From the NCBI GenBank assembly GCA_031271345.1, contig JAISVX010000003.1, positions 437,223-501,222 of the forward strand: DNA of 64,000 nt, in the 5' to 3' direction. This stretch comes from Lactobacillaceae bacterium (GTDB taxonomy: Bacteria; Pseudomonadota; Alphaproteobacteria; RF32; CAG-239). This document shows positions 3,826 through 29,206 of this stretch, in pieces. The first letter of the stretch is position 1. Each line of letters opens with the position of its first letter. Made by a program: the position numbers and the translations under genes. Below the pieces are notes generated by a model. That model made no database searches. It saw only the letters and a program-made list of their open reading frames with translations, and had not been told where the DNA came from.

Positions 3826-3897
3826 CTTCTGTTAAAGTATTATAAAGATTTATAAGATAAAATCTTCTTAAAATGAAAAAATTTAAGGAGATAAATT

Positions 3898-4842: not shown

Positions 4843-5493
4843 ATGGAAATAGCTTTAAGCTTAACAGCCTTATTTTTCGCCATTGTACTTCATGAGATAG
4901 CTCATGGGTACGTGGCGCTTTTATGCGGCGACGACACTGCAAAAAGACAAAAAAGACTATCGCTAAATCCACTCCGCCACATTGACCCAATCGGTACAAT
5001 TATCGTTCCTTTGGCAATGTATTTCAGCAATATAGGATTTGTATTCGGCTGGGCAAAACCAGTTCCCGTAAACTATTATAATCTCCGCAAAGGCAGAAGA
5101 GACATTGTACTAGTTGCTTCCGCCGGAATTATAACAAATCTATCTTTAGCCCTTTTGTCAGCGTTAGTCATCAAGCTGTTTCCGCCCATAGAAAATACTT
5201 TTATCGGGCATATAGGAGTGGGATTTTTAGTTCCTTTTATTTTATATAATATAATACTCGCAGTGTTCAACCTGATACCAATTCCTCCCCTGGATGGTTC
5301 AAAAATGCTCTTTACTTACATAAACAAGCCTTGGGCATATAAATATCTTTCAAATGAAAGAGCCGGGTTTGGAATAATTATATTAATCGGGTTTATCATC
5401 CCTGCCGCACTAGAGCCGTTAGGAATAGATTTTGATATTTTGGGAGCATACATAAAAGGATTTACGCATTTTATATTAAACTTACTGCCATAG
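4843..5493 (+). CDS. Site-2 protease family (M50) intramembrane zinc metalloprotease
   Basis: 216 aa polytopic protein. HEIAHGY is an HExxH motif inside a TM segment, and a downstream NLIPIPPLDG matches the LDG motif of S2P/SpoIVFB-like proteases. Confidence 0.65.
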   Translation: MEIALSLTALFFAIVLHEIAHGYVALLCGDDTAKRQKRLSLNPLRHIDPIGTIIVPLAMYFSNIGFVFGWAKPVPVNYYNLRKGRRDIVLVASAGIITNLSLALLSALVIKLFPPIENTFIGHIGVGFLVPFILYNIILAVFNLIPIPPLDGSKMLFTYINKPWAYKYLSNERAGFGIIILIGFIIPAALEPLGIDFDILGAYIKGFTHFILNLLP

Positions 5494-11352: not shown

Positions 11353-13509
11353 TTATCTTTCCATTTTAATAGCTTTTATGTTTCTGACAAACATTGCGCT
11401 ATCTTCCAAATCTTCCAAATCAACAGGAATTTTACGACGCCAGTTAGGGTGCTTATCCCTGTCTGTCCCAGGAAGGTTTTGCAGTTTTTCAACCTGCAGA
11501 ATATCCTCTAACTGAGCTAAGAAGACTTTTGAATTTGTTCTGGACATAAACCTGTGGACAGCCTCTTCAATTCCTTCTGGATATTTCTCGCCATATATAT
11601 AGTTTCCGCTGCGCATATTATCCCGCGGCCAAACGCCAGCATAGTCTAATGCGGATAAAAGCTTCCACCTGTCGTTTTCTCTTTTATGATAAGAATTGTT
11701 TTTTTCCTGCTCATTTGGTATGAGACCCAGATTGTATGACAATTCAATGTCATATCCAAACCACCACATTTTCAAAGGCGCCATATCATGGGTTCCGACA
11801 GAAACATACGAATCAACGGGATATTTATCCGGCGGTATAAAATCTCCCCAGCCCGCGCCGTATCTTTCCGCCCATAAAACGCTTAAGGATTTTATATTGG
11901 CATTGCCGAGCTTGTCTAAAAAACCATCGGGAACATTGCCGATACTCTCGCCGACAATCATACATTTATTAAGATGGCTTTCTATCATAACCACAGCCAT
12001 CATTTCATCCAAATTATACAAGACATAAGTGCCAAGTTCTTTGTGGTCTGGAATAATATAAAGCCTCATCAATGACATTACATGGTCGATACGAAGCGCG
12101 CCTGAAAACTTCATATTTGCCCGCAATATTTTTATAAAAGGCTCATACCCGGCATCTTCAAGCCTAAACGGATTAAACGCGCCAAGCCCCCATTTCTGCC
12201 CTGCGGGGAAAAATGCGTCCGGCGGCGCTCCCGCTCCGGCTCCTTCGATAAATGTACCGCTGTCTCCCCAAAGCTCCGCACTGTCTCCGCCTACCCCGAC
12301 AGCTAAATCTCTGTATAAACCGACAGCCAGGTTTTTTTCTTTAATTTTCCCATGAACCCCGTTTAACTGTCTGTCAAACTCAAACTGCAAAAACTTAAAG
12401 AAACCTATTCTGTCTTGATTTTCTTTCACATATTCAGCCACTTTTGGCGAATGAGGATTTTTATATTCTTCTTCCCAGGCTCTCCATCCGCCCCAAATTA
12501 CTTTTGATTTTTCTTCATACAAACATTGGAATATCGCAAGTTTATCAAGCTCGCTGCCTTTTTCCAAAAGATATTTTGAAAAGTCTAGTTTTCTCTCTTT
12601 ATTTGCGCTGTCCTTAAATCTTTTATAAGCTTTTTCCAAAACTGCCATTTTTGTTGGATAAACATACGAATATAAAATGGTTTCGCTGTCTCTGTATTTT
12701 TTTAATTTATCTTCTATTTCCGTTTTATCTTCAGGCAAAAACTCTGGAACTTTTTCGGCGTCAATATATATCGGATTTGAAAACAAACGACTGATTGAAG
12801 AATATGGGCTGGCATTTTCCGGGTAATCATGAAACAAAACATTCAGCGGATTTAATCCGATTACGGAAGCGCCGTTACTGCCGCAAATATCGATTAATGT
12901 TTCCAAATCTGTCAAGTCGCCGACGCCCCAGTTCCTTTTACTTTTTAACGAATATAGCTGAACGGCGACCCCCCAGAGTTTGCTATTGTTGACCACTTCT
13001 GATTCATAGCACCTGTCAGGCGCGACCGCTAACCTCGAAGAATAAATTTCGCTTCCGGCATTTACATATAAATCATAATATCCAATGTCCAAATCCGAAT
13101 TTATCCGAACAAAAAGCTTTACATAATCATTACCGTTTATTCTTTTTTCCTCTTTCAGACTTTCCACTTCATATCTTATCGTCGGAGAAGCTTTTGTATC
13201 AACATTCGCGATGCTTACGGTTAAAATTTCGTTTGCCGCAGACTTTGGCAGAACAATATCAAAAACAACATTACGAGGCTTAACAACGTAAATACCATTC
13301 AAAACCTTATGCCATCTTCTATCGTTAAATTTATTGATAGATTCGACGATTGACGCGTTATCATCAGCTTTGTATCCAAGTTTGCCAGCCAAAAAAGCAA
13401 TTACATCATCGTTGACTTCATAATCTTTAGCAACTAATCCCGCGTCTCTAAACTTAGTCAGGATACCAATTTTGTCCGCAAGCTCATGCAATTTATTCGA
13501 CATTAACAA
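11353..13509 (-). CDS. malQ: 4-alpha-glucanotransferase (amylomaltase, GH77)
   Basis: 718 aa. WGVAVQLYSLKS...NWGVGDLTDL and the GH77 core are present. Confidence 0.85.
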   Translation of the reverse strand: MLMSNKLHELADKIGILTKFRDAGLVAKDYEVNDDVIAFLAGKLGYKADDNASIVESINKFNDRRWHKVLNGIYVVKPRNVVFDIVLPKSAANEILTVSIANVDTKASPTIRYEVESLKEEKRINGNDYVKLFVRINSDLDIGYYDLYVNAGSEIYSSRLAVAPDRCYESEVVNNSKLWGVAVQLYSLKSKRNWGVGDLTDLETLIDICGSNGASVIGLNPLNVLFHDYPENASPYSSISRLFSNPIYIDAEKVPEFLPEDKTEIEDKLKKYRDSETILYSYVYPTKMAVLEKAYKRFKDSANKERKLDFSKYLLEKGSELDKLAIFQCLYEEKSKVIWGGWRAWEEEYKNPHSPKVAEYVKENQDRIGFFKFLQFEFDRQLNGVHGKIKEKNLAVGLYRDLAVGVGGDSAELWGDSGTFIEGAGAGAPPDAFFPAGQKWGLGAFNPFRLEDAGYEPFIKILRANMKFSGALRIDHVMSLMRLYIIPDHKELGTYVLYNLDEMMAVVMIESHLNKCMIVGESIGNVPDGFLDKLGNANIKSLSVLWAERYGAGWGDFIPPDKYPVDSYVSVGTHDMAPLKMWWFGYDIELSYNLGLIPNEQEKNNSYHKRENDRWKLLSALDYAGVWPRDNMRSGNYIYGEKYPEGIEEAVHRFMSRTNSKVFLAQLEDILQVEKLQNLPGTDRDKHPNWRRKIPVDLEDLEDSAMFVRNIKAIKMER

Positions 13510-13517
13510 CTCCCAAA

Positions 13518-15590
13518 TTATTTTCTAATTTCAAACAGCAAAACGCTCCATGCAGGAACATCTATCTTTTCGCCCGAAAGATTTTTCTTAACATTTTTCA
13601 TTTTCATCGAACTGTCAACAATAAGCTCCCAATTCATATTTCCCAAATCAGGCAGTTTCCATTTCAAGGTAACATAATTCGCATTAAGCATGAGATAAAT
13701 AAATTTGTTTCCATCATAAACCAAATATGAGAGTGATTTCTTGTCGCTGTTATACCAGTCATGTTCCGTAAACTCTATGCCGCGGCTGTTATACCAGGCA
13801 ATATCTTTATAATCATCCTTTATAACTTCGCCCGTAAAAAATTTCTTGCGGCTGAATATATTTAATTTTTGTCTTGTTTTTATAAGCTTGCGGACAAACT
13901 TTGCAAACTCTCTGTCCTCAGCGTTCACAGCTTCCCACGCAAACCAGGATATTACATTATCCTGGCAATAAGGATTATTATTTCCAAACTGTGTCTTTAA
14001 CAGTTCGTCGCCAGCCAAAATCATCGGCGTGCCAAAAGAAAACAACAAGGTTGACATCAATGCCCTTGCTCTTAACATCCTGTTTGTTAAAACCGTCTTA
14101 TTATCGGTTTCTCCTTCATGACCAGAATTCCAGCTGATATTATTATCGCTTCCGTCTCTGTTTTCTTCGCCGTTGGCAATATTATGCTTCTGGTTATAGC
14201 TGACTAAATCATTAAGACAAAAACCGTCATGAACAGTAATAAAATTTACGCTGCTCCACAAGTTTCGATGATTATAATTAAACACATCGCTTGAGCCTGC
14301 TATGCGGCTGGCAATAGGAGCTACCTGAGAGCCGTCGCCCTTCCAGAAAGACCTCGCGACATCTCTGTATTTGTCGTTCCATTCTGCCCATCCGGGCAAA
14401 AACGCGCCGACTTGATACCCGCCCAAATCCATATCCCAAGGCTCCGCAATAAGCTTTACTCTTGACAGCACAGGATCCTGCTTCACCGCCTGCATAAAAC
14501 CGCTGAGGCGGTCAAATACCATGTTAACTCTGGATAATGAAACGGCTAAATCAAAACGAAAACCATCAACATGCATTTCTTCAACCCAGTAGCGAAGCGA
14601 GTCCATAACAAGCTTCAAAACCTCGGGGTGCTGAACATTAAACGACGAGCCAACGCCCGTGCTGTCATAATAATGGCGTTTATTGTCGTGTTTTAACGTA
14701 TAATACGAGGCGTTATCTATGCCGCGGTAAGAGATAGTCGGTCCAAGATGGTTTCCCTCGCCGGTATGGTTATAAACAACGTCAAGGATTACCTCCAGCC
14801 CGTTTTTATGCATTGTTTTAACAAAATCTTTAAACTCGTCGATTTCGCCGTTTACTAAATATGACTGTTCCGGCGCAAAAAATGAAAAACTCTCATATCC
14901 CCAATAGTTATCCGTAATAAATCCTTTTTTATGACGATTGCCAAAGAAAGCATGAATAGGCAGCAGCTCGACAGAAGTAATTCCAAGCCACTTCAAATAT
15001 TTGGTTATCGCGGGATTGGTCATGCCCAGAAAGGTGCCTTTTTTGCTGTCGGGAACTTTTGGATGGAGCTTGCTGTAGCTTCTGACATGAGTCTCATAAA
15101 TAATCGTATTTTCAAAAGCGACGTCTGGAGATTTATCTCTGCCCCAATTATAACTATTAGCAACCACAACAGACTTCGGAACATAAGGAGCGCTGTCTAA
15201 TTCGCTAAAAGATAAATCTAAATCCGGGCTATCTGCATCATAGCCGAATATGGCTTTATCCCAGATTAATTTTCCGACAAGTTTTTTTGCGTAAGGGTCA
15301 AGAAGAAGCTTATGATGATTAAATCTGTGTCCTTCCATCGGCTTATATGGTCCATAAACCCTATAACCATATACCTGACCAGATTTCAGCCCCGGAATAT
15401 AAACATGCCAGATATTGTTTGTATTATCTTTCAGCTCATGGCGGTGAAGCTCTTTTGAACCGCTTTCGTTAAACAAACAAACTTCAATCTTGGTTGCATT
15501 GGCTGAGAAAATAGCAAAGTTTACACCTTCTCCATCAAAACTCGATCCTAAAGGATATGGTTTTCCAGATTTGGTTTTTACTTCCGCCAT
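13518..15590 (-). CDS. glgX: Glycogen debranching enzyme (isoamylase-type GH13)
   Basis: 690 aa. It has an N-terminal CBM48-like region, LDVVYNHTGEGN and GFRFDLA GH13 motifs. Confidence 0.85.
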   Translation of the reverse strand: MAEVKTKSGKPYPLGSSFDGEGVNFAIFSANATKIEVCLFNESGSKELHRHELKDNTNNIWHVYIPGLKSGQVYGYRVYGPYKPMEGHRFNHHKLLLDPYAKKLVGKLIWDKAIFGYDADSPDLDLSFSELDSAPYVPKSVVVANSYNWGRDKSPDVAFENTIIYETHVRSYSKLHPKVPDSKKGTFLGMTNPAITKYLKWLGITSVELLPIHAFFGNRHKKGFITDNYWGYESFSFFAPEQSYLVNGEIDEFKDFVKTMHKNGLEVILDVVYNHTGEGNHLGPTISYRGIDNASYYTLKHDNKRHYYDSTGVGSSFNVQHPEVLKLVMDSLRYWVEEMHVDGFRFDLAVSLSRVNMVFDRLSGFMQAVKQDPVLSRVKLIAEPWDMDLGGYQVGAFLPGWAEWNDKYRDVARSFWKGDGSQVAPIASRIAGSSDVFNYNHRNLWSSVNFITVHDGFCLNDLVSYNQKHNIANGEENRDGSDNNISWNSGHEGETDNKTVLTNRMLRARALMSTLLFSFGTPMILAGDELLKTQFGNNNPYCQDNVISWFAWEAVNAEDREFAKFVRKLIKTRQKLNIFSRKKFFTGEVIKDDYKDIAWYNSRGIEFTEHDWYNSDKKSLSYLVYDGNKFIYLMLNANYVTLKWKLPDLGNMNWELIVDSSMKMKNVKKNLSGEKIDVPAWSVLLFEIRK

Positions 15591-15608
15591 ACGTCAATCT
15601 CCCACAAA

Positions 15609-17849
15609 TTATCTAACTGGTTTAAGTATAATTGTCGATAACGGAGGTAAAGTAAGCCTTATTGAATACGGTTTGTAGTTCCATCCATCTTCTGAGGCAT
15701 GCAGTTCATTTTCGTTTTTGACTCCGCTTCCCCAATATTTTTTATCATCGCTGTTAAAAATTTCCTTAAACGAGCATTTTTCAATAACGCCGATTTTATA
15801 ATCATGCCTTACTACCGGCGTAAAGTTGCAGATAACGACAACATAATCGCCCGGCGTTCTGCCTTTTCGTATATACGAAACAACACTGTCATCCGCGTTT
15901 GAATGCTCTATCCACTCAAATCCCTGATAGTCGAAGTCCTGCTCATACAAAGCCGGATTGTCGCGATACGCGAAGTTTAAATCCCTGATATAGTCCTGCA
16001 TGCTCTTATACATTGGATATTCCAACAAGTGCCAGCGCAAACTTTCGTTGTAGTTCCATTCCCAGTCTTGTCCGAACTCGCAGCCCATAAACATCAGTTT
16101 TTTGCCAGGATGCGTAAACATAAATCCATAATAAGCCCTCATATTGGCAAATTTCTGCCATTCGTCCCCCGGCATTTTTGCAAGCATGGAACCTTTGCCG
16201 TGAACAACTTCATCATGAGAAATCGGCAGAATAAAGTTTTCATTAAAAGCATAAATCAACCCAAACGTGAGCAGACCATGATGATATTTTCTATGAATAG
16301 GGTTTTCGCTGATATAATGCAGCGTATCATTCATCCAGCCCATATTCCATTTATACCCGAAACCCAATCCTCCCATAGATGTCGGACGGGAAACCATCGG
16401 CCAAGCCGTTGACTCTTCCGCAACCATAACCGCGCCTTTATTATAACCATAAGCTATTTCATTCATGCGGCGTAAAAAAGATATTGCCTCCAGATTTTCG
16501 TTTCCGCCATAAATATTCGGAACCCACTCGCCAGCTTTGCGCGAATAATCCAAATACAGCATAGAAGCCACGGCATCAACTCTTAGACCGTCTATGTGAT
16601 ATTCTTTTAACCAGAACAATGCGCTCGCGCACAAAAAGTTGAACACCTCCGTACGTCCAAAATTATATATCATTGTTCCCCAGTCGGTATGCTCGCCTTT
16701 TTTGGGATCCGCATGCTCATACAAATGGGTTCCGTCAAACTCTGCCAAACCATGAATATCTTTAGGAAAATGCGCCGGTACCCAGTCCATAATCACGCTG
16801 ATTCCAGCCTGGTGGAATTTATCAATCATATACTTAAAATCTTCCGGGTTTCCAAAGCGGGATGTTGGAGCAAACATTCCTAATGTCTGATACCCCCATG
16901 AACCGTCAAACGGATGTTCTGTCAAAGGCAGAAACTCAATATGAGTATACCCCATATTGGTCACATAAGGAACTAATCTGTCTGCAAATTCGCGGTAAGA
17001 TAAATAATCTTCGCCAAACATTCCGTTGCGGCGCCATGAACCTAAATGCACTTCATAAATTGACATCGGCTGAGAAAAATCGTCCCTCGCTTCCCTTGCA
17101 TCCACCCATTCTTTATCCTGCCACTGATATTTATCAATATCAAAAACAACCGATGCGGTGTTTGGTCGTCTTTCCGAATAAAACCCTATAGGATCCGACT
17201 TTAGAAGAATATTATTTTTTGCGGTTTTAATTTCATATTTATAAACTTCGCCTTCGGTAATGCCGGGAATAAAAATGTCCCAAACTCCGCATGAAATATG
17301 TTTGCGCATTATATGCGTGCGACCGTCCCAGCCGTTAAAATCTCCGACGACGGAAACTCTTTTTGCATTAGGCGCCCAAACGGCAAAACTCACGCCTTTT
17401 ACGCCGTCTATTTCTATCAAATGAGCGCCGAGTTTTTTATATAATTCTAAGTGATTTCCCTCGCCTAAAAGATAGACGTCAATATCGCCCAAAGTCGCGG
17501 GAAAACGATATGTGTCTTCTTTAAAATATACATTGCCCAAATCATTCGTAATCTTAAACCTGTATTTAAAATTTTCCGACTGACCCAAGTTAATTTGGTA
17601 AAACCCTCTTTTATCTAATTTTGTCATTTTACCGATGACTTTTCCATCATAGTCTACGACTTCGACACCGTTGCTGCCGGGCTGATACGTTCTAATGTAT
17701 ACTTCTTTGCTGCCCTTGTCTTTATGAATGCCCAAAACAGAAAAAATGTTTTCATAATCGCCATTTATTATGGCGTCCATTTCACTATTAGATAAAGTCT
17801 TTTCCATCAGGTTTTTGCTCCCAAATAAGTCAGAAAAATAATTAAGCAT
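15609..17849 (-). CDS. glgB: 1,4-alpha-glucan branching enzyme
   Basis: 746 aa. [17 protein letters not shown] and the EES/ISHDEV GH13 branching-enzyme motifs are present. Confidence 0.9.
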
Positions 17850-18321: not shown

Positions 18322-19686
18322 TTAAAGCTGTTTTTTGACCATCGAAATTATAAAACCAATAACCTCGCTGTCGCCCTCATTTCTTATATGCTCGCGAGAA
18401 ATATTTTCCAAATCAAACCCTGTTTTTTCAATTAGATTTTCTATATAGTTTCTGCCATGAGAAAACCTTCCGGACGCATGTAATTTTATGCCGTCATTTT
18501 TTGGATTCTCCGATACGGAAAAAATCACTCTTCCATTTTTTTTCAAAATATTATTGAGATTTAAAAACAGATTTTCCAAATCTCCAAAATATATAAAAAC
18601 ATCTGTCGAAACAACCAGGTCATATTCATTTTTTCTTGAAGATAAAAAGCTTATTAATTCCTCAACAAAAAGTTTATTATAAATTCGTTTTCTCTTAGCT
18701 TCAGCAATCATTTCAGAAGAAATATCCACTCCGTGAAGCCCAAATATTCCTGCATATTTTTTAAGATATTTTCCACATAATCCCGTGCCGCATCCAGCGT
18801 CTAAAATCTTCAGTTTTTTTGATGTTTTCTTTCCGTATATCTGAAGAAGAAAATCATTAATCAGCTCTGGAGCTTTATAATCTAAATCTTTTAAAACCCT
18901 TTCAAAATCCGAAGCAAAAACATCAAAAATATTTTTTAAATATTCATCATTCGCCCGATCCAAAACTTCGTCATTTAATATAGATTTTGCCATATAGTTC
19001 ACAACATTATTATATGAATATTTTTTCAGCCACTGCTCCGTATACCTCACGCTCAATTCTCTATCTTCAATTGATATTTCATAAAGCATATATCCAAGAT
19101 TTATATGGTGCGAATTTCTTCCGTCTTCATCGCTGATATTAACGGCTTTATAACCGGCTTCAACAGCCTTTTCATTCTCTCCTATTTTCTGATATAACTG
19201 GCTCAGATTGTTATAGCTCCAGGCGTCGTCTGGCGATAGCTCTATAGCTTTTTTCGTATAAATAATCGCATTTTCATAGTCTTTAATTTCAAAATAAGTA
19301 TTGGCGACATTAACAACAGAAACAACATTTTCTTCATGAAGATTATATGCTTTTAAATACCACTCCAGAGCTTTGAGATAATCTTTATTTTTATACTCAA
19401 TATTGCCCAAAATTATCAGGGACGAAGTGTTTTTATCACTTATTTTAAGCGCTTTTTCGGCATATTTTTTCGCATCGTCAAACTGGCTCATTTCATATAA
19501 TGAAATCGCAATATTGCTAAAAGGAATTGATGAATTTTTGTTTAATTTGTACGCCTTTTTATAAAAAGCAATCGCTTTGTTTTTATCGCCTTTTTTATCA
19601 TAGCCGTTTCCTGCCGAGATTAATGCTTTAAATTCTTCAGCAGTTTTTTTAGATTCTATTTCAGATTTGACGCTTTCTTTTTTCAT
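18322..19686 (-). CDS. TPR-repeat protein with a C-terminal class-I SAM-dependent methyltransferase domain
   Basis: The N-terminal ~300 aa are TPR-like repeats (AIAFYKKAYKLN, ALEWYLKAYNL, AIIYTKKAIELSP). The C-terminal part carries ILDAGCGTGLCG (motif I) and DLVVSTDVFIYF. The start is taken at the ATG at 19686 (MKKESVK). The longer ORF-track start at 19977 runs across the tRNA-Leu gene on the opposite strand. Confidence 0.65.
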   Translation of the reverse strand: MKKESVKSEIESKKTAEEFKALISAGNGYDKKGDKNKAIAFYKKAYKLNKNSSIPFSNIAISLYEMSQFDDAKKYAEKALKISDKNTSSLIILGNIEYKNKDYLKALEWYLKAYNLHEENVVSVVNVANTYFEIKDYENAIIYTKKAIELSPDDAWSYNNLSQLYQKIGENEKAVEAGYKAVNISDEDGRNSHHINLGYMLYEISIEDRELSVRYTEQWLKKYSYNNVVNYMAKSILNDEVLDRANDEYLKNIFDVFASDFERVLKDLDYKAPELINDFLLQIYGKKTSKKLKILDAGCGTGLCGKYLKKYAGIFGLHGVDISSEMIAEAKRKRIYNKLFVEELISFLSSRKNEYDLVVSTDVFIYFGDLENLFLNLNNILKKNGRVIFSVSENPKNDGIKLHASGRFSHGRNYIENLIEKTGFDLENISREHIRNEGDSEVIGFIISMVKKQL

Positions 19687-19767
19687 AATTTGCACCTTAG
19701 CATAATATAAGTAAAAAAAACATTGACGACATTGATTAAATATTATATTTATCGTTTTGACTCTAAT

Positions 19768-19852
19768 GGGGGCGTGGCGGAATGGTAGACGCGGTTGACT
19801 CAAAATCAATTGTCCACAAGACTTGGGAGTTCGAGTCTCCCCGCCCCTACCA
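19768..19852 (+). tRNA. tRNA-Leu (anticodon CAA), long variable arm
   Basis: D-arm GGCGGAAUGGUAGACGC. Anticodon stem gttga/tcaat with loop cuCAAaa. T-arm gggagTTCGAGTctccc. Acceptor end ...cgcccctACCA. Confidence 0.85.
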
Positions 19853-20005
19853 ATAAGCAAAACTGCCAAGTGTGGCGGTTTTTTTATTGGGGCAAACGTT
19901 TTATAAATAAAACACTGGAGATTGCTGTTTAAGGCGGTCTTTTTTATTATTGACAACGAGGCAAAAGGTAATATCATTTGTAAAAATCAACAAAAGCGAG
20001 CCTTT

Positions 20006-20899
20006 ATGCACTATATTTTAATAAGTTTTCTCAGACCGTTTTTCTTCTCTCTTGCAAACATAATCGAGGGCAAACTTGCCAATACGACATTTAAGAAAAC
20101 AACGACAATGATTTTCTACATATCATTGATGAACTTTGCATTTCTGCCGCTGCTTTTATTTTTGGGAAGACCGACAATTCCGTCTTTTGAGGTTTTCTGC
20201 ATGCTGGCTTTTATCGGCGCCGTTGAAACAACATATTTATATCCATATTATATGGCGGTTAAAAAAATTGATGTCTCAATCGTAACCGCGCTGTTTTCTC
20301 TGGGACAGATTTCCATTCCCATAATGTCATTTTTTATCCTCGGCGAAAAGCTTCTCCCAACTCAGTATTTAGGGTTTTTTATCATAATCATCACATCGAT
20401 AATCTTAAGCATTGATAACCTTAAAATGCCCAAGCTCAATAAAGCCTTTTACTATATGACGGGCGTTTCGCTGCTGCTCTCATTTTATATGATTGTCGAA
20501 AAAAATATTCTAAACATTGATGACAACTGGATAAACGTAGCTTTTTATCCAACGCTTATTTCAGGACTTATCCCCTCTGTTTTTCTGCTAAAAAAAGACT
20601 GCAGAAAAGACATCGTAAAAGCCTTTCCACTTTATAAGAAAAACTTCAAACTAATGACACTAAACGAGCTTATCTGCTTTGGGGCCATAGTTGCGACCGC
20701 TTATGGGCTATCAGGGTTATCGCCGGTTGTTCTTGCCTCAATTGCGGCAACCGTGCCGATTTTTACTTTGGTTATCAGCTATATTCTGACAAAAGCTTTT
20801 AACGTTTACTGTATAGAGACATTAACAAAAAAAATAGTGTCAAAAAAGCTTGCCTGTTTTTGTTTTATTATTGCCGGGGTTGCCCTGGCAATTGGATAG
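20006..20899 (+). CDS. DMT-superfamily (EamA-like) transporter, about 10 TM segments; start codon uncertain (ORF opens at 19922)
   Basis: Two EamA-like repeats, for example YPYYMAVKKIDVSIVTALFSLGQISIPIMSFFILGEKL. The 3' end overlaps the convergent M48 gene by 32 nt. Confidence 0.6.
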   Translation: MHYILISFLRPFFFSLANIIEGKLANTTFKKTTTMIFYISLMNFAFLPLLLFLGRPTIPSFEVFCMLAFIGAVETTYLYPYYMAVKKIDVSIVTALFSLGQISIPIMSFFILGEKLLPTQYLGFFIIIITSIILSIDNLKMPKLNKAFYYMTGVSLLLSFYMIVEKNILNIDDNWINVAFYPTLISGLIPSVFLLKKDCRKDIVKAFPLYKKNFKLMTLNELICFGAIVATAYGLSGLSPVVLASIAATVPIFTLVISYILTKAFNVYCIETLTKKIVSKKLACFCFIIAGVALAIG

Positions 20900-21815
20900 T
20901 TTCCTGAATAAATGATGTTCTTTCTTTCAAACCAAAATCTTTTTCCAAAAATGATATTTTCTCCGCCAGATTCTCTCTGCCGATATATCTGTCATTTTCA
21001 GGATGACGCTTTTTCCATGCGTTTGCTTTCGCGGCAAATTTTTCTATCCGCTGCTCTAAGCTCGGATGACTTTGAAAATAGTCTTCAAGAATACTTAAAT
21101 GCGCATTCCTGTTTATTCCGTCGTACTCCAGCAAACTTTTGAAAGAATTTGACACAGCCATAATATCATAAGGACTGTTTTTTATCACCTCAAACGCATA
21201 ATCATCCGCCTCAGCCTCCTGAGTCTTTGAATAAGAATGCCTAAGCAATATATTTTGAGCGACATCGGCAACCTTGCCCAAACTTCCAAGATTAAGCTTC
21301 TTGGTCAAAATTTCGAACTTTACGGCATTAAAACAATGAGAATTTTCTATATGCCCAACCTCATGAGCGATAATCGCCATAAGTTCGCTCTCGGACTTCA
21401 CCGTCTTTAAAAGCGGCTGGGTGACGACTACAGCTCCTCCAGGGAGGGCATACGCGTTGGCTTCAAAAGTCTCCTCAACAAAAATCTCATAGTCAAACTT
21501 CTTATGCTTTGCCCACTCGGCATTTCTAAGAAGAGAATTCAAATAAGTCCTGTCCTTTTCCAGATGAGGATAATTATACTGTCTGTATCTTTTCTTTATC
21601 TCGTCGCCCAGCTCTTTCTCATCCATGCCGTCTATCGGCAGAATACTGCCAATTCCCCTGTTAGCGGAAGAAGTAACATTGCCAACGACCTGAAACACAT
21701 TCGAGAATGATATTTCATTGTTCATTGATTTGTTGGAAGCGGCAATATTAAAAAACACCGCCGCTCCGACAAAAATAAATATAACCAGCAAAAATATCAG
21801 CTTTTTACTTTTCAT
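20868..21815 (-). CDS. M48-family Zn-metallopeptidase with an N-terminal signal/anchor
   Basis: 315 aa. AHEVGHIENSH is an HExxH motif, and QEAEADDYAFEV supplies the third-ligand EAEAD motif characteristic of M48. The N-terminal 25 aa are a hydrophobic helix. Its start overlaps the upstream DUF2339 gene by 11 nt. Confidence 0.7.
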   Translation of the reverse strand: MKSKKLIFLLVIFIFVGAAVFFNIAASNKSMNNEISFSNVFQVVGNVTSSANRGIGSILPIDGMDEKELGDEIKKRYRQYNYPHLEKDRTYLNSLLRNAEWAKHKKFDYEIFVEETFEANAYALPGGAVVVTQPLLKTVKSESELMAIIAHEVGHIENSHCFNAVKFEILTKKLNLGSLGKVADVAQNILLRHSYSKTQEAEADDYAFEVIKNSPYDIMAVSNSFKSLLEYDGINRNAHLSILEDYFQSHPSLEQRIEKFAAKANAWKKRHPENDRYIGRENLAEKISFLEKDFGLKERTSFIQETIQLPGQPRQ

Positions 21816-24681
21816 AGCGGTACTTATATTTATTATAAATAGCGTTCATAGTAATTAAGATACAGCCGATTATAATAAATATAACCGCCTTAATCAGAAA
21901 ATCCTGACCACGTAAATCAAAAAACATTATTCTTATAAAAATCCCCGCCACACCGTACATTGAAACGACCCTGTATTCAGACCTTCCGATTATGATGCTA
22001 ATCATAAATAAAACAAAGCATTCAACCATCCAAAGAACAGATAAAATCGATTTATCAAATCCTCTGTATAAGAAAAACGCTATTGCCAAGAACAATGGAT
22101 AAATCAAAACTCTGGCGTCATATTTAACAAGAAGAGACTTAACGCTTAAAGCAAGCTTGTTAAGAGCGGCAAGCTCATTGCCCTCAATAAACGCAAGCTT
22201 CCTGTATGCCGACAACGCGAATATAACGGATAAAACAACTGTTATCATGCTTCTAAACCAAACCTGGTCATAAATAAGCCTTGACGGCGTCGCTGATGAC
22301 GAAGAAACGAAACCAACGTTTGCCAGCGCGATAAAAAACAACAAAAAACTGTACATTGTAACCCGATTATAACTGCCGAGCTTAGGACCGACAAACAGCG
22401 AAACAAGAGCAAGAATCGCAAACGCGGTGCCTTGTTCAACTATTCTTACTTCCGCAAAAATATAAAATGAAGCCAAAACCAAAAAGGCTTCAAGCATTCC
22501 GTTTATACATTTTTTTATATATTCGCCATTGAGTTTGGTTCCAAAAACCATCCAGTATACCAAAGCCAGCAAGCTTAATATCTCCGTTGCAAATCTTGCG
22601 GGCAGAACATCTAGAAGCATTGTATGATTGCCCAAGTCAACCAGGCAAAAACGAACAATAAATAATATGAAGCTTACTTTTGACAACATTGTAATCAAAT
22701 ATGCCGGACTTCCTTTTTCACCTGCGGGAACAGTATTTTTCCATAAAATTTCTTTTATATCGCTTCCAATAAGAAAAACAAGAAGCCACAGCACGCTTGT
22801 AAGCATTGTCGAATATGGAATGGTAAACTTATACGCCGCAAACATCAATAACGACCACAGAATTAGAATTCCCGATTTATAAGAATGGCGCTTAAGCTTC
22901 TCAGACCAGCTAAATCTCAGCATAGCCGCTCCTGTTATAATAACAATCGCGGCAAGTTCAACGTTTATCCATAAGTCGTATTTTTTGAAATAAATCAATA
23001 TCATATAATACGCGCTTGTTACAATAGCTATAAAAGCCACCGTGCTGTCAACAAGAGCATTTTTATAATATCCCTTAAAGAATATTGCCGACAGCCCCAT
23101 CAAAAATGCCGCTATAAACCATATACCGTTTGAAAGCGCAATTGCCGACGTCAGGTAAGCCGCGGTAATTATGTGCAGGGCAAAAAACAGATTCATAAAT
23201 GTTGACGTGCCTTTTTGCGCGGTGTCATCAATTTCAAAACCATAAGCCTCTCTTCTTGCAAAATTCTCTATAGACGGATACAAAACAATATTTACAACAT
23301 AGCTTGTGATAATATACATAAACATTTCCTTGTCTACTGTCTCGCTAAGGAAAAGAAGCGGTATAAAGACAATATAGCCGATAAGGACCACAAAGTTATT
23401 TATATTAAATACCATCTTGTTTTTTACATAAGTATTCAGCTTTAAGAATATTACCGAGAAAATAGAAGCATAAAATGCCATTTGATAATATTCAAAATCA
23501 AATTTATAAAGCGAAGTGCAGGTTAAAACGCCCAAAGCCAGCGATACCATCCTATCGCATACATAAAGCCACTCCGCTTTAATTTTATTGCCATAGTAAG
23601 AGAGAGCAAACGTTGCAAAAGCGCCTATTCCCAAGCCTATTGTACTCCAAATGCTTCCTCTGGAATGAATATAAAGATTTATACCAAGCGCTGCCCAAAT
23701 TATAATATGGCTTATTAACGCCTTATTGTCCCAGCCCTGATATATTTTGCGATAATGGCTGAGAATACACGGCAAAGCAACAAATAAACATAAGGCGATA
23801 GTCAGCGCGTATGGCGACGGCCAAACAGTATAATAGTTCATAGCCCAAAAAATATTAAGCAGCATAAAAGACGCGTTTACCACCGCTATATGAACATCCC
23901 ACTTCCTGCTGCCCAGCGTCATTAACATGCCGATAAAACAGATTGCCGCCGCAATTACAAACGACAAGTATGTAAACGGAATCAACAGTAGAGCAAACAA
24001 ACTTAACACAACATGAACCGTTGCAAACAGCTCTTTTTTGCTTAAAGCGCCAAAAGCAATATTTACAAAAACACCCAAAACAATAAACAGCCATGCCTGC
24101 ATATCGTCATATATCCACTTCATGTATGTAAACTGGGAAGCGCCTATACATCCGACAAGAAAAACGACTCCCGAGGCAGTTCTCAGCCATAGAGCGATAC
24201 TTTCCCAAAAAGAATATCTTTTCAATGACAAATACAAACCATAGAAAAACACGGAAAAGCCGCAAACAACTATAAACCGCGCGAGTGGTCCCATATTAAT
24301 CGCGGCGTAAATCGCCAAAAAGATTATACCGATTATAACTGCGGTAACGCCTATAACTCCTGTAGCATTTCCGGCAAAAAGTTTTTCAAGTTTTGCCCAA
24401 AAAGACACTTTCTCTTCGACGCGGGGAGATTTTGGCTGTTTTGGCGCCGCCGGCTTTTTAACCGACTCACGAACTACTTCTTCAATAATTATTTCAGCTT
24501 TCTTTTCTTCAATAATCATCTCAGCCTTAACCTTATTAGTTTTTGCCTGTCCTTTGAGAGCCTGTTTCATATTGGCAAGCTCATCCTCAAGCTTATTAAT
24601 TCTTAGATTGGCTTTATTAATGGAGCCATTAATCGAGATAACCGCTAAGAAAAACACCACTACCAGTATAGATACTACCAT
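21805..24681 (-). CDS. DUF2339-like large polytopic membrane protein
   Basis: 958 aa. It has an N-terminal TM segment, then a coiled coil (NKLEDELANMKQALKGQAK), then a Pro/Lys-rich linker (KKPAAPKQPKSPRVEEK), then at least 25 hydrophobic helices. No catalytic motif is recognisable. Confidence 0.55.
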   Translation of the reverse strand: MVVSILVVVFFLAVISINGSINKANLRINKLEDELANMKQALKGQAKTNKVKAEMIIEEKKAEIIIEEVVRESVKKPAAPKQPKSPRVEEKVSFWAKLEKLFAGNATGVIGVTAVIIGIIFLAIYAAINMGPLARFIVVCGFSVFFYGLYLSLKRYSFWESIALWLRTASGVVFLVGCIGASQFTYMKWIYDDMQAWLFIVLGVFVNIAFGALSKKELFATVHVVLSLFALLLIPFTYLSFVIAAAICFIGMLMTLGSRKWDVHIAVVNASFMLLNIFWAMNYYTVWPSPYALTIALCLFVALPCILSHYRKIYQGWDNKALISHIIIWAALGINLYIHSRGSIWSTIGLGIGAFATFALSYYGNKIKAEWLYVCDRMVSLALGVLTCTSLYKFDFEYYQMAFYASIFSVIFLKLNTYVKNKMVFNINNFVVLIGYIVFIPLLFLSETVDKEMFMYIITSYVVNIVLYPSIENFARREAYGFEIDDTAQKGTSTFMNLFFALHIITAAYLTSAIALSNGIWFIAAFLMGLSAIFFKGYYKNALVDSTVAFIAIVTSAYYMILIYFKKYDLWINVELAAIVIITGAAMLRFSWSEKLKRHSYKSGILILWSLLMFAAYKFTIPYSTMLTSVLWLLVFLIGSDIKEILWKNTVPAGEKGSPAYLITMLSKVSFILFIVRFCLVDLGNHTMLLDVLPARFATEILSLLALVYWMVFGTKLNGEYIKKCINGMLEAFLVLASFYIFAEVRIVEQGTAFAILALVSLFVGPKLGSYNRVTMYSFLLFFIALANVGFVSSSSATPSRLIYDQVWFRSMITVVLSVIFALSAYRKLAFIEGNELAALNKLALSVKSLLVKYDARVLIYPLFLAIAFFLYRGFDKSILSVLWMVECFVLFMISIIIGRSEYRVVSMYGVAGIFIRIMFFDLRGQDFLIKAVIFIIIGCILITMNAIYNKYKYRYEK

Positions 24682-24698
24682 TTAACCATCTTTCAGAA

Positions 24699-27600
24699 TT
24701 ATTTATTGTTCCAAACAGAATCTTTAACGTATGCGCTGAAACCCCATTTAATCCATTTAACAAAATATACTGCCAGCCATGTAGACCAGATAACCATGAA
24801 ACACCTATACATCCATACAGGCAAAGATATGATTTTTGGCATTGGCAAAGCCCCCATTGTTACATCCTGATACCATGTAAGCTTTAAAAACTCTCCAGAA
24901 ACATAAGAGTTTCCAGTAATCCTCATGCTCCAGCTGCCGAGCAAGCCGCTGTATATTCCGCTAAACAAGCTGTATACGAACAACAATGTTAAAAAAGGTA
25001 TTGCCAGCTGGAATAATTTCTTAAACTTAAGCCCATCGGAAAATTTGTCTCTGACGCCTAAAGCAATGAACCATATTATGATTATAACCATAAACAGCAG
25101 GCTGGTCTGGGTTAAACCCAAAAGCAGGATAAACCACTGGGCAAAGCTCAACGGAGCAGCTTTATATCTGCTTAAAACAAAAGCGATAATCAGCCATGCC
25201 GGTATCATGCTCCAAAACAGTACGGAAGGTCCTTTAGTTGGTCCGCTGGTAAATAAAACCCATCTGCTCAAAGGCACCTGCGCCGATTGTGTTATATTAA
25301 CCGCAGGAGCTGTTAAATCAAACTCTGGAAACTTGACATAACTGCCTAGTTTGTTCTTTATTGACGCCTTGAAGGAAATGCTGTTGCTTCCTTGAACGAC
25401 AGGAACGGCAAGTTTATTGCCGTTAACTGTCACTGGATATTGTCTGCCCTCAACAATAAGCTCCTTAACCTCTGCGTTTTCAGGGATTGTAATATCGTGA
25501 ACCCCCGCGTCGGACGCTCTCATATTAAGCGATATATTCGCGTCAATAACGCCTCTTCCATAAGAAATATTGTAGTCAACCTTATCAAAGGTAATAACAT
25601 ATCCGTCAACATTGCTTGGTCTGAAGATTTTAAACTCCAAACTTTCTCCGGCATTTGGCTTGAACGAAATATTATTATCATTTGAAACAGTTGGAGTCAG
25701 ACCAGAATATTTAAAACTCCAGGTATAATCAACATTAAAAGTCCACTCTTCTTTATAATTATTAATTTTTACCGGCGATTTTAAGATAATGTCCTGCTCC
25801 ACGGGAAGAAGAGAAACAAAGCTTTTTGCACTCTCTCTCGGCGCAAAGGAGATTCTAATTTTTCCAGATGTCAGCGTGCCGTCGGTATCAATTACTTTTT
25901 CACCTTCAAGCAAGGGAACCTCAATAGTCGCAGCTTCCGACAGGTTATTTGTTCGAACGACATTGGTTGAAACCTGCCACATCGCGCTAATATCAAAGTT
26001 TCTTTTTACGACAAAGAAAGTATCAATATCCATTTTTGACAACTCTGATGTTTTTCTTACAGCCGCAACTTTTTTCATACGGTTAATTTGAAAAGTCTGG
26101 CTGCCGGATTTATTTTCGCTAAATGACAAACCGTCAAGTTTTCCTTCCGCATGATTAATTCTAATCTTTGACGAAAGTATGAACCTATCGGTGTTTTCAT
26201 CCAGCACATAGTTCATCTCAATATCGTTAATACCCTTATTTATTAAAACGAAAATGCCGTCGTCTTTTTTCAAAGTATTTTTGGCTTCCGCTTTATTAAG
26301 ATTAATGCCGCTGAGTCTTACAAAACCAGAGCCGTCCGCTCTAAGAACAGGCAGCGGAACCACCAGAGTTTCGTTACTGTGAAAGTTTATTTTAACCGTA
26401 ACATTATCGCCATTATTATAAATCACGCCGTCAGGAATAGAAACGCATTCAGGCAGACATGAAGGCACATATTCTCTGGTCAGTTTATCCTCCATTTTCT
26501 TTATGACTTCGCTTGAAGGAATTATATCTTCAGCCTTTGCGTTTAAAGGGTTAAGAAGCATTAAGCCTAAGATAGAAGCCGTGAAAAGTTTTTTCATAAC
26601 GCCGTTTCCTTTTTCACCAAAATTAGGTTTTACATTTTTTGCGTCAAACAGCCAAATCAGAGCAAATATAACCAAAGCTGCTCTTAAAAAGGCTAAAATG
26701 ATGTTTACGCATGGCGACAATAGATAAAGCTTAAAATTATCTCCCTCAACAACAGGACCTTTGATAAACAGTCTTATCGACGAGTTGTAATCGCTCCATG
26801 TCGGAAATCCCACGCCGGTTTGAGCGACGTTTCTCGCAACATTTATGCTTTGATATTTTTTCATGCTGGAATCATTAAGAAGTTTCTGGTTCAGGTTTGA
26901 CGCTTTATTTTTTGCGAGACCGGCAATCGATTTTTTAAGGTCGCCTCTTTCTTTATAATATCCGTCGTCATAGTCATAATCAGCCGCTGCCATTTCCTCG
27001 ACAAACTCATAAGACTGTGCAACCATGGGAGCCGAAGATCTCATTACGCCGCTCACGCCATAAGATCCGCCTCCGGCAAAGGTGTTATCGGCATATCCCG
27101 TTACACCCATATAGTAAATTCCGTTTATAACCGCAAAAACAACTGCCGAACAAATAAAAGTTATAATAAACACGCCGATTGTGTATAAAACTTTTCGCCA
27201 TGTCTCATAAGTATGATTTGCAAATATTCTGTATATTATATATCCAACCAAAGAATATACATAAAAATAGATAAGGAACTTATAGCTTATAAATACCATA
27301 AACATTGATCCCATACCCATATCTAAAGATGGATATATTGCCCCTCTAAGATGTTTTACAACAAATACAAACACCGCGATTGATAAAAATGCAAGCAGCG
27401 TATATCTGATATAAGAAACAAAACCGTATATTTTTATGTCGGGCTTAATGTTCCTCTGCAGGAATAAAAGACCGCAAAGCACAAACGCAAGCGTTGTAAA
27501 CTGCGGAAATATCGGGTGCAGCAATGCCAAAAGAACCAATCCTAAAAAGGCTCTTGCAAAACCAAACAGATAGAAGAAACACACTGTAAGCAAAGCTACA

Positions 27601-29063
27601 ATAAACACGCTGAGCAGGTTCCAGTTGCTTACCCATGAATTTGAAACCGTATCCACTCCAGAAGCATAAAACAGCTTATATCCGGGAGCCAGCTCTAAAT
27701 TCCAGCTGACATTATTAAACTCTCTGTCATATCCTGCCGCCGGTATGCTTTTTTCATTCTCAACCCTTAGAACATTTGTAATATTCACCTGTCCTTTTCT
27801 AACCTCTATCCCAGGCTCCTTGTTTTGAGAAGTATATGTAATCGCCTGAGGCTCGGAATTTATGCTTGAAGAATAAAACTTAAACGGAGGTTTCAATAAA
27901 AGCCTGCCGTCTTCTTTAAAGTCCGCGTTTATATTGTCTTGAATAGAATAAAAACTGCCGTCGAAAGAAAGCTTGATATTTCTGTTTAAGACTAAGCTGT
28001 CCAGATTTTTATTATCATAGCTTATGGCTTTTAAGGTAAAACTTTGGTTTTTGTTAACCTCATAGGCTGGAAGCCTTTTCCACTCGCTGGGCATAGGAAC
28101 ATTTTGTGTTTGAACGCTGTGCAGACTCAATGGAGCCTGAATAACTCTTCTTGATTTATCGCTTTCAAAAACCCAAATCTCCTGCTCAACGGGAGAATTA
28201 TCCAAAACAAAATCCAAACTATCATTATTTTGGCGCAGCATAATATCAACATTTGAATAACCGGGTTTAACCTCGGCAATCAAATCTCCATTTTTTTGAA
28301 CATATATGGATAAACTGGAGTTAATGCTGGATAGAGAAAAGTTCTGGGGAATAATCCTGCCAAGGTTCTCAACCCTTTCTTTTCCCGTTACATTAAGGTT
28401 CAGCCTGACAGTCATCATAACGGGAATATTATCGGTAATTTTTCTGTAAACAAAAACGCTTAAATCATCTGTTTCGCTTTTAGCTGTCGACTGGGTTTCC
28501 AAACGCAGAACGCCGCTGTAATCAATAGCCGGGTTGGCAACGGCAATACCTTGTTTTTTAATGTTTAGTATCGCGGCATTATTGGGAATAAACAAATATC
28601 TGACTTCTTCTTTAGATTTTAATTTACCCTCAATTTTATATTCGCCCTTATCAAGGTAGACATAAGGTCTTCCGGCGCGCGAGATTATATTCATATTTTT
28701 GCCGTCAACCCAGACATTTACAGGAAAAACCTCTACAGAGCCTGGAAGCAGAACATATCCTTTATCCAAGATTTTAACATCTTGAACAAAATCCGCCTCT
28801 TTTCCATTAATATCAATATCAAGATTTGAAATATAATAACAGTATTTATCATTATAGTTATTATACGCAAAGTCGCATTTGCTCTTTTCCGTACCGTCCA
28901 AACTCCATACCGTCCAGTCTTTCAGAACATTTGGAAGATTTTCTTTAACAAAAACCTCTGGTTTTTTAGGCTCCAGAACAAAAGAAGAATCCGCAGACGC
29001 ATGATTAGCCAATACTGTAAAAGACAGTAAAAGAGCTAAAGATAAAGCTATAATTTTTCGCAT
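24699..29063 (-). CDS. Giant (1454 aa) exported polytopic membrane protein, probably a fusion of two ancestral genes
   Basis: A signal peptide MRKIIALSLALLLSFTVLANHASA is followed by a ~460-aa hydrophilic beta-rich region, a TM cluster (residues 480-660), a second TM segment (780-806), then an internal signal-peptide-like MKKLFTASILGLMLLNPLNAKA at residue 823 preceded by an AAGGA ribosome-binding site, a ~420-aa hydrophilic region and a C-terminal TM bundle. No known catalytic motif is visible. Confidence 0.5.
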   Translation of the reverse strand: MRKIIALSLALLLSFTVLANHASADSSFVLEPKKPEVFVKENLPNVLKDWTVWSLDGTEKSKCDFAYNNYNDKYCYYISNLDIDINGKEADFVQDVKILDKGYVLLPGSVEVFPVNVWVDGKNMNIISRAGRPYVYLDKGEYKIEGKLKSKEEVRYLFIPNNAAILNIKKQGIAVANPAIDYSGVLRLETQSTAKSETDDLSVFVYRKITDNIPVMMTVRLNLNVTGKERVENLGRIIPQNFSLSSINSSLSIYVQKNGDLIAEVKPGYSNVDIMLRQNNDSLDFVLDNSPVEQEIWVFESDKSRRVIQAPLSLHSVQTQNVPMPSEWKRLPAYEVNKNQSFTLKAISYDNKNLDSLVLNRNIKLSFDGSFYSIQDNINADFKEDGRLLLKPPFKFYSSSINSEPQAITYTSQNKEPGIEVRKGQVNITNVLRVENEKSIPAAGYDREFNNVSWNLELAPGYKLFYASGVDTVSNSWVSNWNLLSVFIVALLTVCFFYLFGFARAFLGLVLLALLHPIFPQFTTLAFVLCGLLFLQRNIKPDIKIYGFVSYIRYTLLAFLSIAVFVFVVKHLRGAIYPSLDMGMGSMFMVFISYKFLIYFYVYSLVGYIIYRIFANHTYETWRKVLYTIGVFIITFICSAVVFAVINGIYYMGVTGYADNTFAGGGSYGVSGVMRSSAPMVAQSYEFVEEMAAADYDYDDGYYKERGDLKKSIAGLAKNKASNLNQKLLNDSSMKKYQSINVARNVAQTGVGFPTWSDYNSSIRLFIKGPVVEGDNFKLYLLSPCVNIILAFLRAALVIFALIWLFDAKNVKPNFGEKGNGVMKKLFTASILGLMLLNPLNAKAEDIIPSSEVIKKMEDKLTREYVPSCLPECVSIPDGVIYNNGDNVTVKINFHSNETLVVPLPVLRADGSGFVRLSGINLNKAEAKNTLKKDDGIFVLINKGINDIEMNYVLDENTDRFILSSKIRINHAEGKLDGLSFSENKSGSQTFQINRMKKVAAVRKTSELSKMDIDTFFVVKRNFDISAMWQVSTNVVRTNNLSEAATIEVPLLEGEKVIDTDGTLTSGKIRISFAPRESAKSFVSLLPVEQDIILKSPVKINNYKEEWTFNVDYTWSFKYSGLTPTVSNDNNISFKPNAGESLEFKIFRPSNVDGYVITFDKVDYNISYGRGVIDANISLNMRASDAGVHDITIPENAEVKELIVEGRQYPVTVNGNKLAVPVVQGSNSISFKASIKNKLGSYVKFPEFDLTAPAVNITQSAQVPLSRWVLFTSGPTKGPSVLFWSMIPAWLIIAFVLSRYKAAPLSFAQWFILLLGLTQTSLLFMVIIIIWFIALGVRDKFSDGLKFKKLFQLAIPFLTLLFVYSLFSGIYSGLLGSWSMRITGNSYVSGEFLKLTWYQDVTMGALPMPKIISLPVWMYRCFMVIWSTWLAVYFVKWIKWGFSAYVKDSVWNNK

Positions 29064-29098: not shown

Positions 29099-29126
29099 AG
29101 TATAATGAACTAATAAATATATTCAA
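29099..29126 (-). promoter_or_regulatory. Candidate sigma70 promoter for the giant-protein/DUF2339/M48 operon
   Basis: On the minus strand, TTGAAT (plus-strand 29121-29126), a 16-nt spacer, then TATACT (29099-29104). It lies about 38 nt upstream of the ATG at 29063. Confidence 0.3.
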
Positions 29127-29206
29127 ATAAAACATTAAGTTTTACAGAGTTTTAAACTATTGCTGATAACATGTTGAACATGACATATTTTTTAAGGTCT
29201 TAAATA

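Follow-up and report, generated by a model that had tools for sequence, protein, structure and literature searches.

In Pseudomonas aeruginosa, the main defence against Tle3, a phospholipase of the type VI secretion system, is Arc3A (PA5114), a DUF2339 (PF10101) protein with about 35 transmembrane segments (TMs) (PMC8926400). Under Tle3 attack Arc3A prevents the build-up of the lysophospholipids lysophosphatidylethanolamine (LPE) and monolysocardiolipin (MLCL) by a mechanism that is unknown, and it binds Arc3B (PA5113), a DUF3999 (PF13163) protein encoded alongside, which spans the periplasm and has an N-terminal lipoprotein signal and a single C-terminal inner-membrane helix (PMC8926400). DUF2339 proteins are the main cellular defence known in Pseudomonas against lipase-type (phospholipase A) toxins of other bacteria, and they occur across most bacterial phyla; an Arc3B gene next to the Arc3A gene is common in Gram-negative bacteria, but not obligatory (PMC8926400). 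An independent study reported that Arc3A protects against lipase effectors (bioRxiv 10.1101/2024.10.26.620397), and such protection is known only from Arc3A of Pseudomonas and from a small number of complementing homologues (PMC8926400; bioRxiv 10.1101/2024.10.26.620397). Here we analysed a stretch of 64,000 nucleotides from contig JAISVX010000003.1 (the window), in which three minus-strand open reading frames (ORFs), called A, B and C below, form an 8.2-kb cluster. The original prediction regarded their products, a giant exported polytopic protein, a DUF2339-like protein and an M48 zinc peptidase, as one membrane assembly.

The gene order in other genomes does not bear this out. About 85 A-family loci, including those of relatives with 56, 54, 52, 44, 42 and 37% identity to A, had no B- or C-like neighbour, and B–C pairs without A were found in 17 independent loci. 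The reading we favour, with some reserve, is that two units with independent evolutionary histories have come to lie side by side in this lineage, a B–C module for defence or quality control and a stand-alone protein A.

Gene order in the cluster and in other genomes

The order A–B–C is kept in the orthologous loci of two related genomes (L001 and L087), where the A proteins are 74% and 68% identical to the one in the window. Beyond this clade A and B homologues were adjacent only in L109/L110, where A is 49% and B 37% identical, the genes on either side are others, and B is followed by a clear, strong terminator instead of a protease gene. Conservation of the gene neighbourhood, the check proposed with the prediction, therefore holds for all three genes in L001 and L087 and for A–B in L109/L110, but the triad is not a conserved unit elsewhere. 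We read this pattern as A and B–C having become neighbours in one alphaproteobacterial group. In L109, the A and B homologues are separated by an ORF of 198 aa (14343-14939, plus strand), whose product has a Lys-rich N-terminus and about four TMs. The same locus has a DUF2157 + GDYXXLXY gene pair upstream (3278-4859, plus strand); DUF2157 is fused to DUF2339 in the protein P0174.

Among the alternatives, the one that survives best is a single three-protein envelope machine with A in an Arc3B-like role and C processing or maintaining the complex. The junctions of 17 and -11 nt, with no room for a terminator, and the conserved promoter upstream of A would suit such a machine, as would the A–B–C order held in L001 and L087 and the persistence of A–B in L109/L110 at 49% and 37% identity despite other flanks. 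Each half of A, an exported beta-rich part of about 400 aa followed by membrane helices, also resembles Arc3B, which was co-purified with Arc3A (PMC8926400). On the other hand, A is solitary in the roughly 85 loci across phyla, its relatives at 37-56% identity included, the 17 B–C pairs do without A, and L109/L110 do without the protease; moreover, no PF13163 signal was obtained from 55 A-family members and the signal of A is of the signal peptidase I (SPase-I) type, not a lipoprotein signal. We therefore consider the three-protein machine doubtful, and a single three-protein assembly weakly supported, although A may have been recruited beside B as an Arc3B-like accessory in this clade.

The neighbourhood of B is different. 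A metagenome scan based on an alignment of 12 closer B-family sequences returned 18 loci. In 15 of them the B homologue is directly followed by a C orthologue (phmmer E 1e-52 to 1e-78), which starts at the stop codon of the former or a few bases away. With L087 included, the C orthologues range from 1e-52 to 1e-122, and the overlap with B is typically 1-11 nt; in L001 and L087 it is identical, 11 nt. The bona fide PF10101 proteins P0174 and P0176 are likewise followed directly by an M48 gene, with a 4-nt overlap each. Altogether an M48 gene stands directly downstream of a B-family or DUF2339 gene in 20 of 24 independent loci. The genes upstream of the B homologues vary (Aldedh, a NHL protein sorted by the type IX secretion system, DnaE, a nuclease), and none of them is DUF3999-like or A-like; the NHL protein implies a Bacteroidota-type context for one B–C pair. 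Our chief new result is that B–C is a conserved, usually overlapping gene pair, which would span phyla and in which C would be translationally coupled to B. C occupies the genomic position that Arc3B (DUF3999) holds in canonical Arc3 loci. No paper that connects DUF2339/Arc3A to an M48 protease came up in our searches, and a search for annotated DUF2339/DUF3999 loci on plasmids gave no match.

Proteins B and C

Protein B has the architecture that was predicted for it. Sequence and hydropathy show an N-terminal TM (aa 1-24), a coiled-coil and Lys/Pro-rich linker (25-100) and about 25-30 hydrophobic segments (101-958), and the conserved C-terminus reads RIMFFDLRGQDF...YNKYKYRYEK. Its assignment as DUF2339-like stood only in part, as architecture and homology of the family profile speak for it while the PF10101 search proposed for B itself fails, and no domain was recognised in B with Pfam, NCBIfam or PADLOC. 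Relatives of B come closer to the PF10101 gathering score of 33.6 bits. The orthologue P0023 (64% identical) scored 16.7 bits (E 0.003) over profile positions 2-652 of 659, and the relatives P0025 and P0026 scored 26-30 bits, under the cut-off. PF10101 matched 38 of the 50 aligned B-family members at E ≤ 0.01, with 2.5e-10 as the best value; all scores of the listed members are under the gathering score, and the matches typically span the whole model.

A word-indexed search that gave 3 hits and found two relatives had suggested that B is rare, which was overturned by an exhaustive profile search of 1.84 billion representatives. This search recovered 432 clusters at 50% identity, 238 of them at E<1e-30, with mostly full-length members of 950-1000 aa. 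In a database of 5.8e9 sequences, the B-family profile found the PF10101-annotated proteins P0174 (E 2.9e-24), P0175 and P0176. When the family was aligned to P0176 with hhalign (Prob 93%, E 3e-7), both had a C-terminal FYDLRG...Y..FK.R.EK motif in common. One family member, P0045 from Leptospira broomii, carries the RefSeq name 'DUF2339 domain-containing protein'. Because the sub-threshold hidden Markov model (HMM) matches, the profile searches, hhalign and the RefSeq member agree, B is best regarded as a very divergent member of DUF2339/Arc3A, related by remote, transitive homology. Internal repeats in B were considered and rejected (hhalign probabilities of only 2-35%). The Leptospira transcriptome papers that mention DUF2339 contained no functional information. 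In agreement with the expectation that the two large proteins carry no catalytic motif, neither such a motif nor a characterised transporter or enzyme family was found for A or B.

Protein C proved to be the membrane-anchored M48 zinc peptidase that had been proposed. It matched PF01435 (Peptidase_M48) at 4.6e-25 and 89 bits, against a cut-off of 20.3, carries an N-terminal membrane anchor (aa 1-29) and has both motifs, HEVGH at aa 151-155 (nt 21351-21365) and EAEAD at aa 200-204 (nt 21204-21218). The N-terminal TM anchor, with basic residues in front of it, is retained in all 15 C orthologues, and so are the motifs HExGHxExxHC, sKtqExxADey and sHPxxxR. Since basic residues precede the anchor, the catalytic domain would face the periplasm. 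Among solved structures, a Geobacter M48 peptidase (3c37, 4e-14) and BepA (1e-8) come closest to C. BepA-type enzymes are periplasmic and act in the quality control of outer-membrane proteins, and BepA carries a C-terminal tetratricopeptide repeat (TPR) domain. In the 315 aa of C, Pfam finds the M48 domain alone and no TPR domain, and the scores of C are far under those of the BepA (NF052400, 60.5 vs 570 bits) and LoiP (NF052399, 53.5 vs 365 bits) equivalogs.

Protein A and the layout of the locus

Protein A also looked rare in a word-indexed protein search (21 matches), and this too was overturned. Scanning one genome per GTDB species with a search motif from the C-terminal TM cluster of A, we found at least 450 loci in species-representative genomes. 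In the 80 of 450 loci listed, nearly all homologues match end to end, at 23-56% identity, and the family proteins have about 1350-1450 aa. Homologues are present in Methylococcales (Methylovulum miyakonense, Methylobacter luteus, Methyloglobulus morosus, Crenothrix), and also in Thiothrix, Thiodiazotropha, Desulfobacterales, Myxococcota, Acidobacteriota and Elusimicrobia, so that the hosts include methanotrophs and sulfur oxidisers. The A family is unannotated and widespread, neither rare nor lineage-specific. The homologue of Azoarcus sp. KH32C, a genetically tractable host, is a 1364-aa 'hypothetical protein' (WP_015452075.1) encoded on the 738-kb megaplasmid pAZKH (L114 7920-12928), and its gene overlaps an isoaspartyl peptidase/L-asparaginase gene by 4 nt.

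Database searches with A were negative throughout. There was no Pfam or NCBIfam match at E ≤ 0.1 and no PADLOC match, and a PDB sequence profile search was empty at E ≤ 1. When 55 family members were compared with Pfam, no family was common to more than two of them, even at E ≤ 10, and NCBIfam gave nothing for 21 members. The names given by NCBI, 'acyltransferase' for A and 'TMEM181/wntless family protein' for the 56%-identical homologue of a Deltaproteobacteria bacterium, were not reproducible and contradict each other. The exported N-terminal domain of A had been suggested to correspond to DUF3999. DUF3999 proteins have a length of about 450 aa. PF13163 matched neither A and 21 close members at E ≤ 0.1 nor 34 diverse members at E ≤ 10, which makes 55 members without a match, and A has no lipobox Cys, its signal being of the SPase-I type; the suggestion was therefore abandoned. 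The neighbour pairing of DUF2339 and DUF3999 on which it drew is nevertheless real, as it is that of Arc3A and Arc3B in P. aeruginosa (PMC8926400).

Among the roughly 85 A-family loci, which come from many phyla, there was no conserved neighbour of A. ABC ATPase, response regulators, MacB-like permease, GDSL lipase, Mpl and ApaG were considered as partners and rejected as generic or as synteny at the level of the lineage. In six to seven methanotroph loci (L054, L080, L073 and other Methylococcales), an ABC ATPase, a MacB/FtsX-type permease and a GDSL lipase/acylhydrolase lie within about 6 kb of the A homologue, and mpl and apaG are also near. We read the first three as a set like YbbA/YbbP-TesA. 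The methanotroph neighbourhood probably reflects lineage synteny, and the lipase is a notable neighbour given the link to Arc3.

The signal peptide, two large beta-rich exported regions and TM clusters that had been predicted for A were seen in the sequence, in hydropathy and in AlphaFold2 (AF2) models (Table 1); hydropathy indicates at least nine TMs and two beta modules. The first TM cluster has three TMs (476-576) family-wide and two further ones (588-652) only in the clade of A. The linker that follows ends in a conserved QTGxGFPxW (aa 748-756, nt 26796-26822), with G750, P754 and W756 invariant. Behind it, the segment at aa 823-844 is probably a relic of the signal peptide of a second, duplicated unit. 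BLASTP between the two halves of A detected no repeat; profile–profile comparison later showed the duplication. With a 100-sequence alignment, hhalign matched positions 74-576 to 872-1374 (Prob 98.4%, E 6.3e-15), and the beta modules alone, half against half, gave E 1.4e-12. Since the halves are homologous in this comparison, A is best described as an ancient tandem duplication of a unit composed of an exported beta module of about 400 aa and three TMs.

The AF2 models, made for residues 1-820 and 255-1454, have a domain predicted local distance difference test (pLDDT) of about 80-90 and three beta-sandwich subdomains in each half. Foldseek matched the beta modules to ribophorin I/OST1 chains with a probability of 1.00 over 300-500 columns. 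The modules have a fold like that of ribophorin I and of the N-terminal domain of M1 aminopeptidases. The C-terminal TM cluster is the most conserved part of the family, with WFxLLxGLTQ at 1310-1319, WYQD at 1397-1400, a W-rich last helix and invariant Q, R and D residues within the cluster. Between its third and fourth TMs lies a highly conserved loop of 30-40 residues (aa 1376-1414, window 24822-24938; conserved M1380, G1384, N1385, W1397, Q1399, D1400, P1407 and S1413), which is modelled at pLDDT < 50 despite its conservation and may be a re-entrant or partner-binding element.

Table 1. Features of the three-gene cluster, with window coordinates
Feature	Coordinates	Strand	Details	Basis
Promoter-like site	29099..29126	-	TTGAAT (-35), 16-nt spacer, TATACT (-10); upstream of A	consensus scan, 9/12 match
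Gene A	24699..29063	-	1454 aa	ORF + translation
A, signal peptide, Sec type	28992..29063	-	aa 1-24, MRKIIALSLALLLSFTVLANHASA, cut before D (...ANHASA, then D)	sequence, hydropathy
A, first exported beta-rich module	27654..28841	-	aa ~75-470, three beta-sandwich subdomains
A, first TM cluster	27099..27635	-	aa 477-655	hydropathy, family-averaged hydropathy, AF2 helices
A, acidic/Gly-rich linker	26730..27098	-	aa 656-778, low confidence	pLDDT <50 at 649-750
A, TM and internal signal-peptide-like segment	26529..26729	-	TM aa 779-814; segment MKKLFTASILGLMLLNPLNAKA (aa 823-844)	sequence, hydropathy
A, second exported beta-rich module	25245..26528	-	aa 846-1273, homologous to first; conserved CxPxC aa 869-873
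A, C-terminal TM cluster	24744..25244	-	aa 1274-1440	invariant columns, hydropathy
Gene B	21805..24681	-	958 aa	ORF + translation
Gene C	20868..21815	-	315 aa	start inside end of B

Translation of the ORFs confirmed the three co-directional minus-strand genes of the original prediction, the spacing of 17 nt between A and B and the 11-nt overlap of B and C, where ATGAAAAGTAA of C falls within the last codons of B; the compact, operon-like layout is borne out by these junctions. The G+C content of the three genes (0.38-0.40) is the same as that of the surroundings. Because each of them has full-length homologues with conserved residues along the entire length, A, B and C are to be taken as real genes, with chance ORFs excluded. 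Since the 17-nt and -11-nt junctions leave no room for terminators, the genes are likely co-transcribed from one promoter. The sigma70-like promoter proposed upstream of A exists as a site, but it is not significant by itself, as the region contains 38 promoter-like sites of equal quality where 26 would be expected. Both of its hexamers (-35 and -10) and the spacing between them are, however, kept in the orthologous intergenic DNA of L001 and L087, where an upstream block TGTAAAACT is conserved as well, and because of this conservation in two related genomes the promoter is probably real. A further block, GTTTAAAACTCTGTAAAACT (29140-29165), lies about 20 nt upstream of the -35 hexamer and hardly varies between the window, L001 and L087. 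This block might be an UP element or the target of a regulator, in common with the divergent YkuD gene.

On the downstream side, a convergent EamA-family transporter ORF (19922-20899, plus strand) runs about 32 nt into the 3' end of the M48 gene, and L001 and L087 have the same EamA gene after the cluster. A 551-aa ORF with TPR and S-adenosylmethionine (SAM)-methyltransferase domains (18322-19977, minus strand), if read from the first ATG, shares sequence with a tRNA gene encoded in the other direction (19768-19849, plus strand); its true start is probably further downstream, because the L001 orthologue has only 454 aa. Further downstream lies a glycogen-metabolism cluster (11353-17849, minus strand; 4-alpha-glucanotransferase, a CBM48/alpha-amylase debranching-type enzyme and GlgB), which is syntenic in L001. 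MlaC is encoded in the window and FlaF/FliX at the locus L111 of a relative, which we take to point to a diderm, probably alphaproteobacterial organism. The NCBI label of the metagenome-assembled genome, 'MAG: Lactobacillaceae bacterium', and the product names look unreliable.

Proposed functions and comparison with known systems

By analogy with Arc3A, B might serve as a platform or sink in the inner membrane, where it would sense or sequester damaged lipid or protein or the agents that damage the membrane. C, anchored beside it, would cleave the proteins brought to the periplasmic face of the platform, such as lipase-type toxins or damaged membrane proteins, or, alternatively, would maintain B itself. 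Together, B and C would form a membrane-damage defence or quality-control module. A is most likely an inner-membrane-anchored, periplasm-facing and pseudo-dimeric binding or scaffold protein that acts alone; no catalytic or transport motif was found in it to support a narrower function.

Several observations weigh against this two-unit picture. The recurrence of A–B without C in L109/L110 hints at a real link between A and B, and the M48 gene is missing at four of the 24 B-type loci (L096, L101, L103 and L109/L110). B itself gave no match to PF10101 at E ≤ 0.1 or E ≤ 10, and the transfer of function from Arc3A to B spans a very large evolutionary distance. We found no experiments tying any DUF2339 protein to a protease, and the periplasmic orientation of C is a prediction from the positive-inside rule. 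In the case of A, the data indicate no ligand or activity, and with a predicted template modelling (pTM) score of 0.46-0.48 the models do not fix the inter-domain geometry and the linker topology.

The B–C pair could also consist of a protease and its regulator or substrate, unrelated to lipid damage, with B as a membrane scaffold that gates or activates C for the general quality control of envelope proteins, much as BepA-type M48 enzymes have TPR or scaffold partners, or with C maturing or turning over B. The tight translational coupling suggests matched stoichiometry, C is nearest to BepA-type and Geobacter M48 proteases, with sub-threshold BepA and LoiP matches in NCBIfam, and the unknown molecular mechanism of Arc3A (PMC8926400) leaves room for such a relationship. 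However, C is far under the BepA and LoiP cut-offs and lacks the TPR domain of BepA, while the experimental data on the DUF2339 family concern lipase-toxin defence and lysophospholipids only (PMC8926400; bioRxiv 10.1101/2024.10.26.620397); we consider this explanation improbable. We give equally little credence to the boldest combination, in which a phylum-spanning B–C defence module captures toxins in the membrane and degrades them at the periplasmic face, and A has been recruited as an Arc3B analogue into a three-part envelope-defence assembly. That an envelope component is transported, flipped or enzymatically processed by A, with the help of polar residues in its C-terminal TMs and of periplasmic beta modules that handle the substrate, is unlikely as well.

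If the boldest combination is true, the B–C pairing would help to explain the mechanism by which proteins of the Arc3A family counter toxins that attack the membrane. The coupled M48 partner is a testable clue, pointing either to proteolysis of captured toxins and damaged proteins or to protease-dependent upkeep of a giant membrane protein. New are the DUF2339–M48 module, as a variant of Arc3, and A as a large unannotated and internally duplicated family. The latter merits a family definition, as its members occur in at least 450 species, among them Azoarcus and the cultured methanotrophs Methylovulum, Methylobacter and Methyloglobulus. The locus is also a warning for annotation that tight gene spacing in a reduced genome does not prove a single assembly.

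Compared with known structures, the beta modules of A resemble in fold the luminal domain of ribophorin I/OST1 and the N-terminal beta domain of M1 aminopeptidases. The identity is only 6-14%, with no sequence-level kinship; A is bacterial, duplicated and fused to TM clusters, and has no link to oligosaccharyltransferase or to a peptidase domain. C shares with BepA/LoiP and with 3C37 the HExxH...ExxAD motifs and a soluble catalytic domain that would lie outside the cytoplasmic membrane. It differs from BepA/LoiP in having no TPR domain, an uncleaved-looking N-terminal TM anchor, the extended HExGHxExxHC motif and a DUF2339-type neighbour. A is similar to Arc3B in that each half consists of an exported beta-rich part of about 400 aa followed by inner-membrane helices, and in that it adjoins a DUF2339-type gene in this clade; this adjacency is found in the window, L001, L087 and L109/L110 and not in the roughly 85 other A-family loci. 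Unlike Arc3B, A carries a signal of the SPase-I type; it is also polytopic and duplicated, has three times the size and is solitary nearly everywhere. B, finally, which belongs to a branch known from sequence alone, stays under the Pfam threshold, has about 25-30 TMs instead of about 35 and is paired with an M48 protease gene, not with DUF3999/Arc3B. Like Arc3A, however, it is a very large protein in which TM helices are densely packed and no catalytic motif is seen, and it is encoded with a periplasm-exposed partner.

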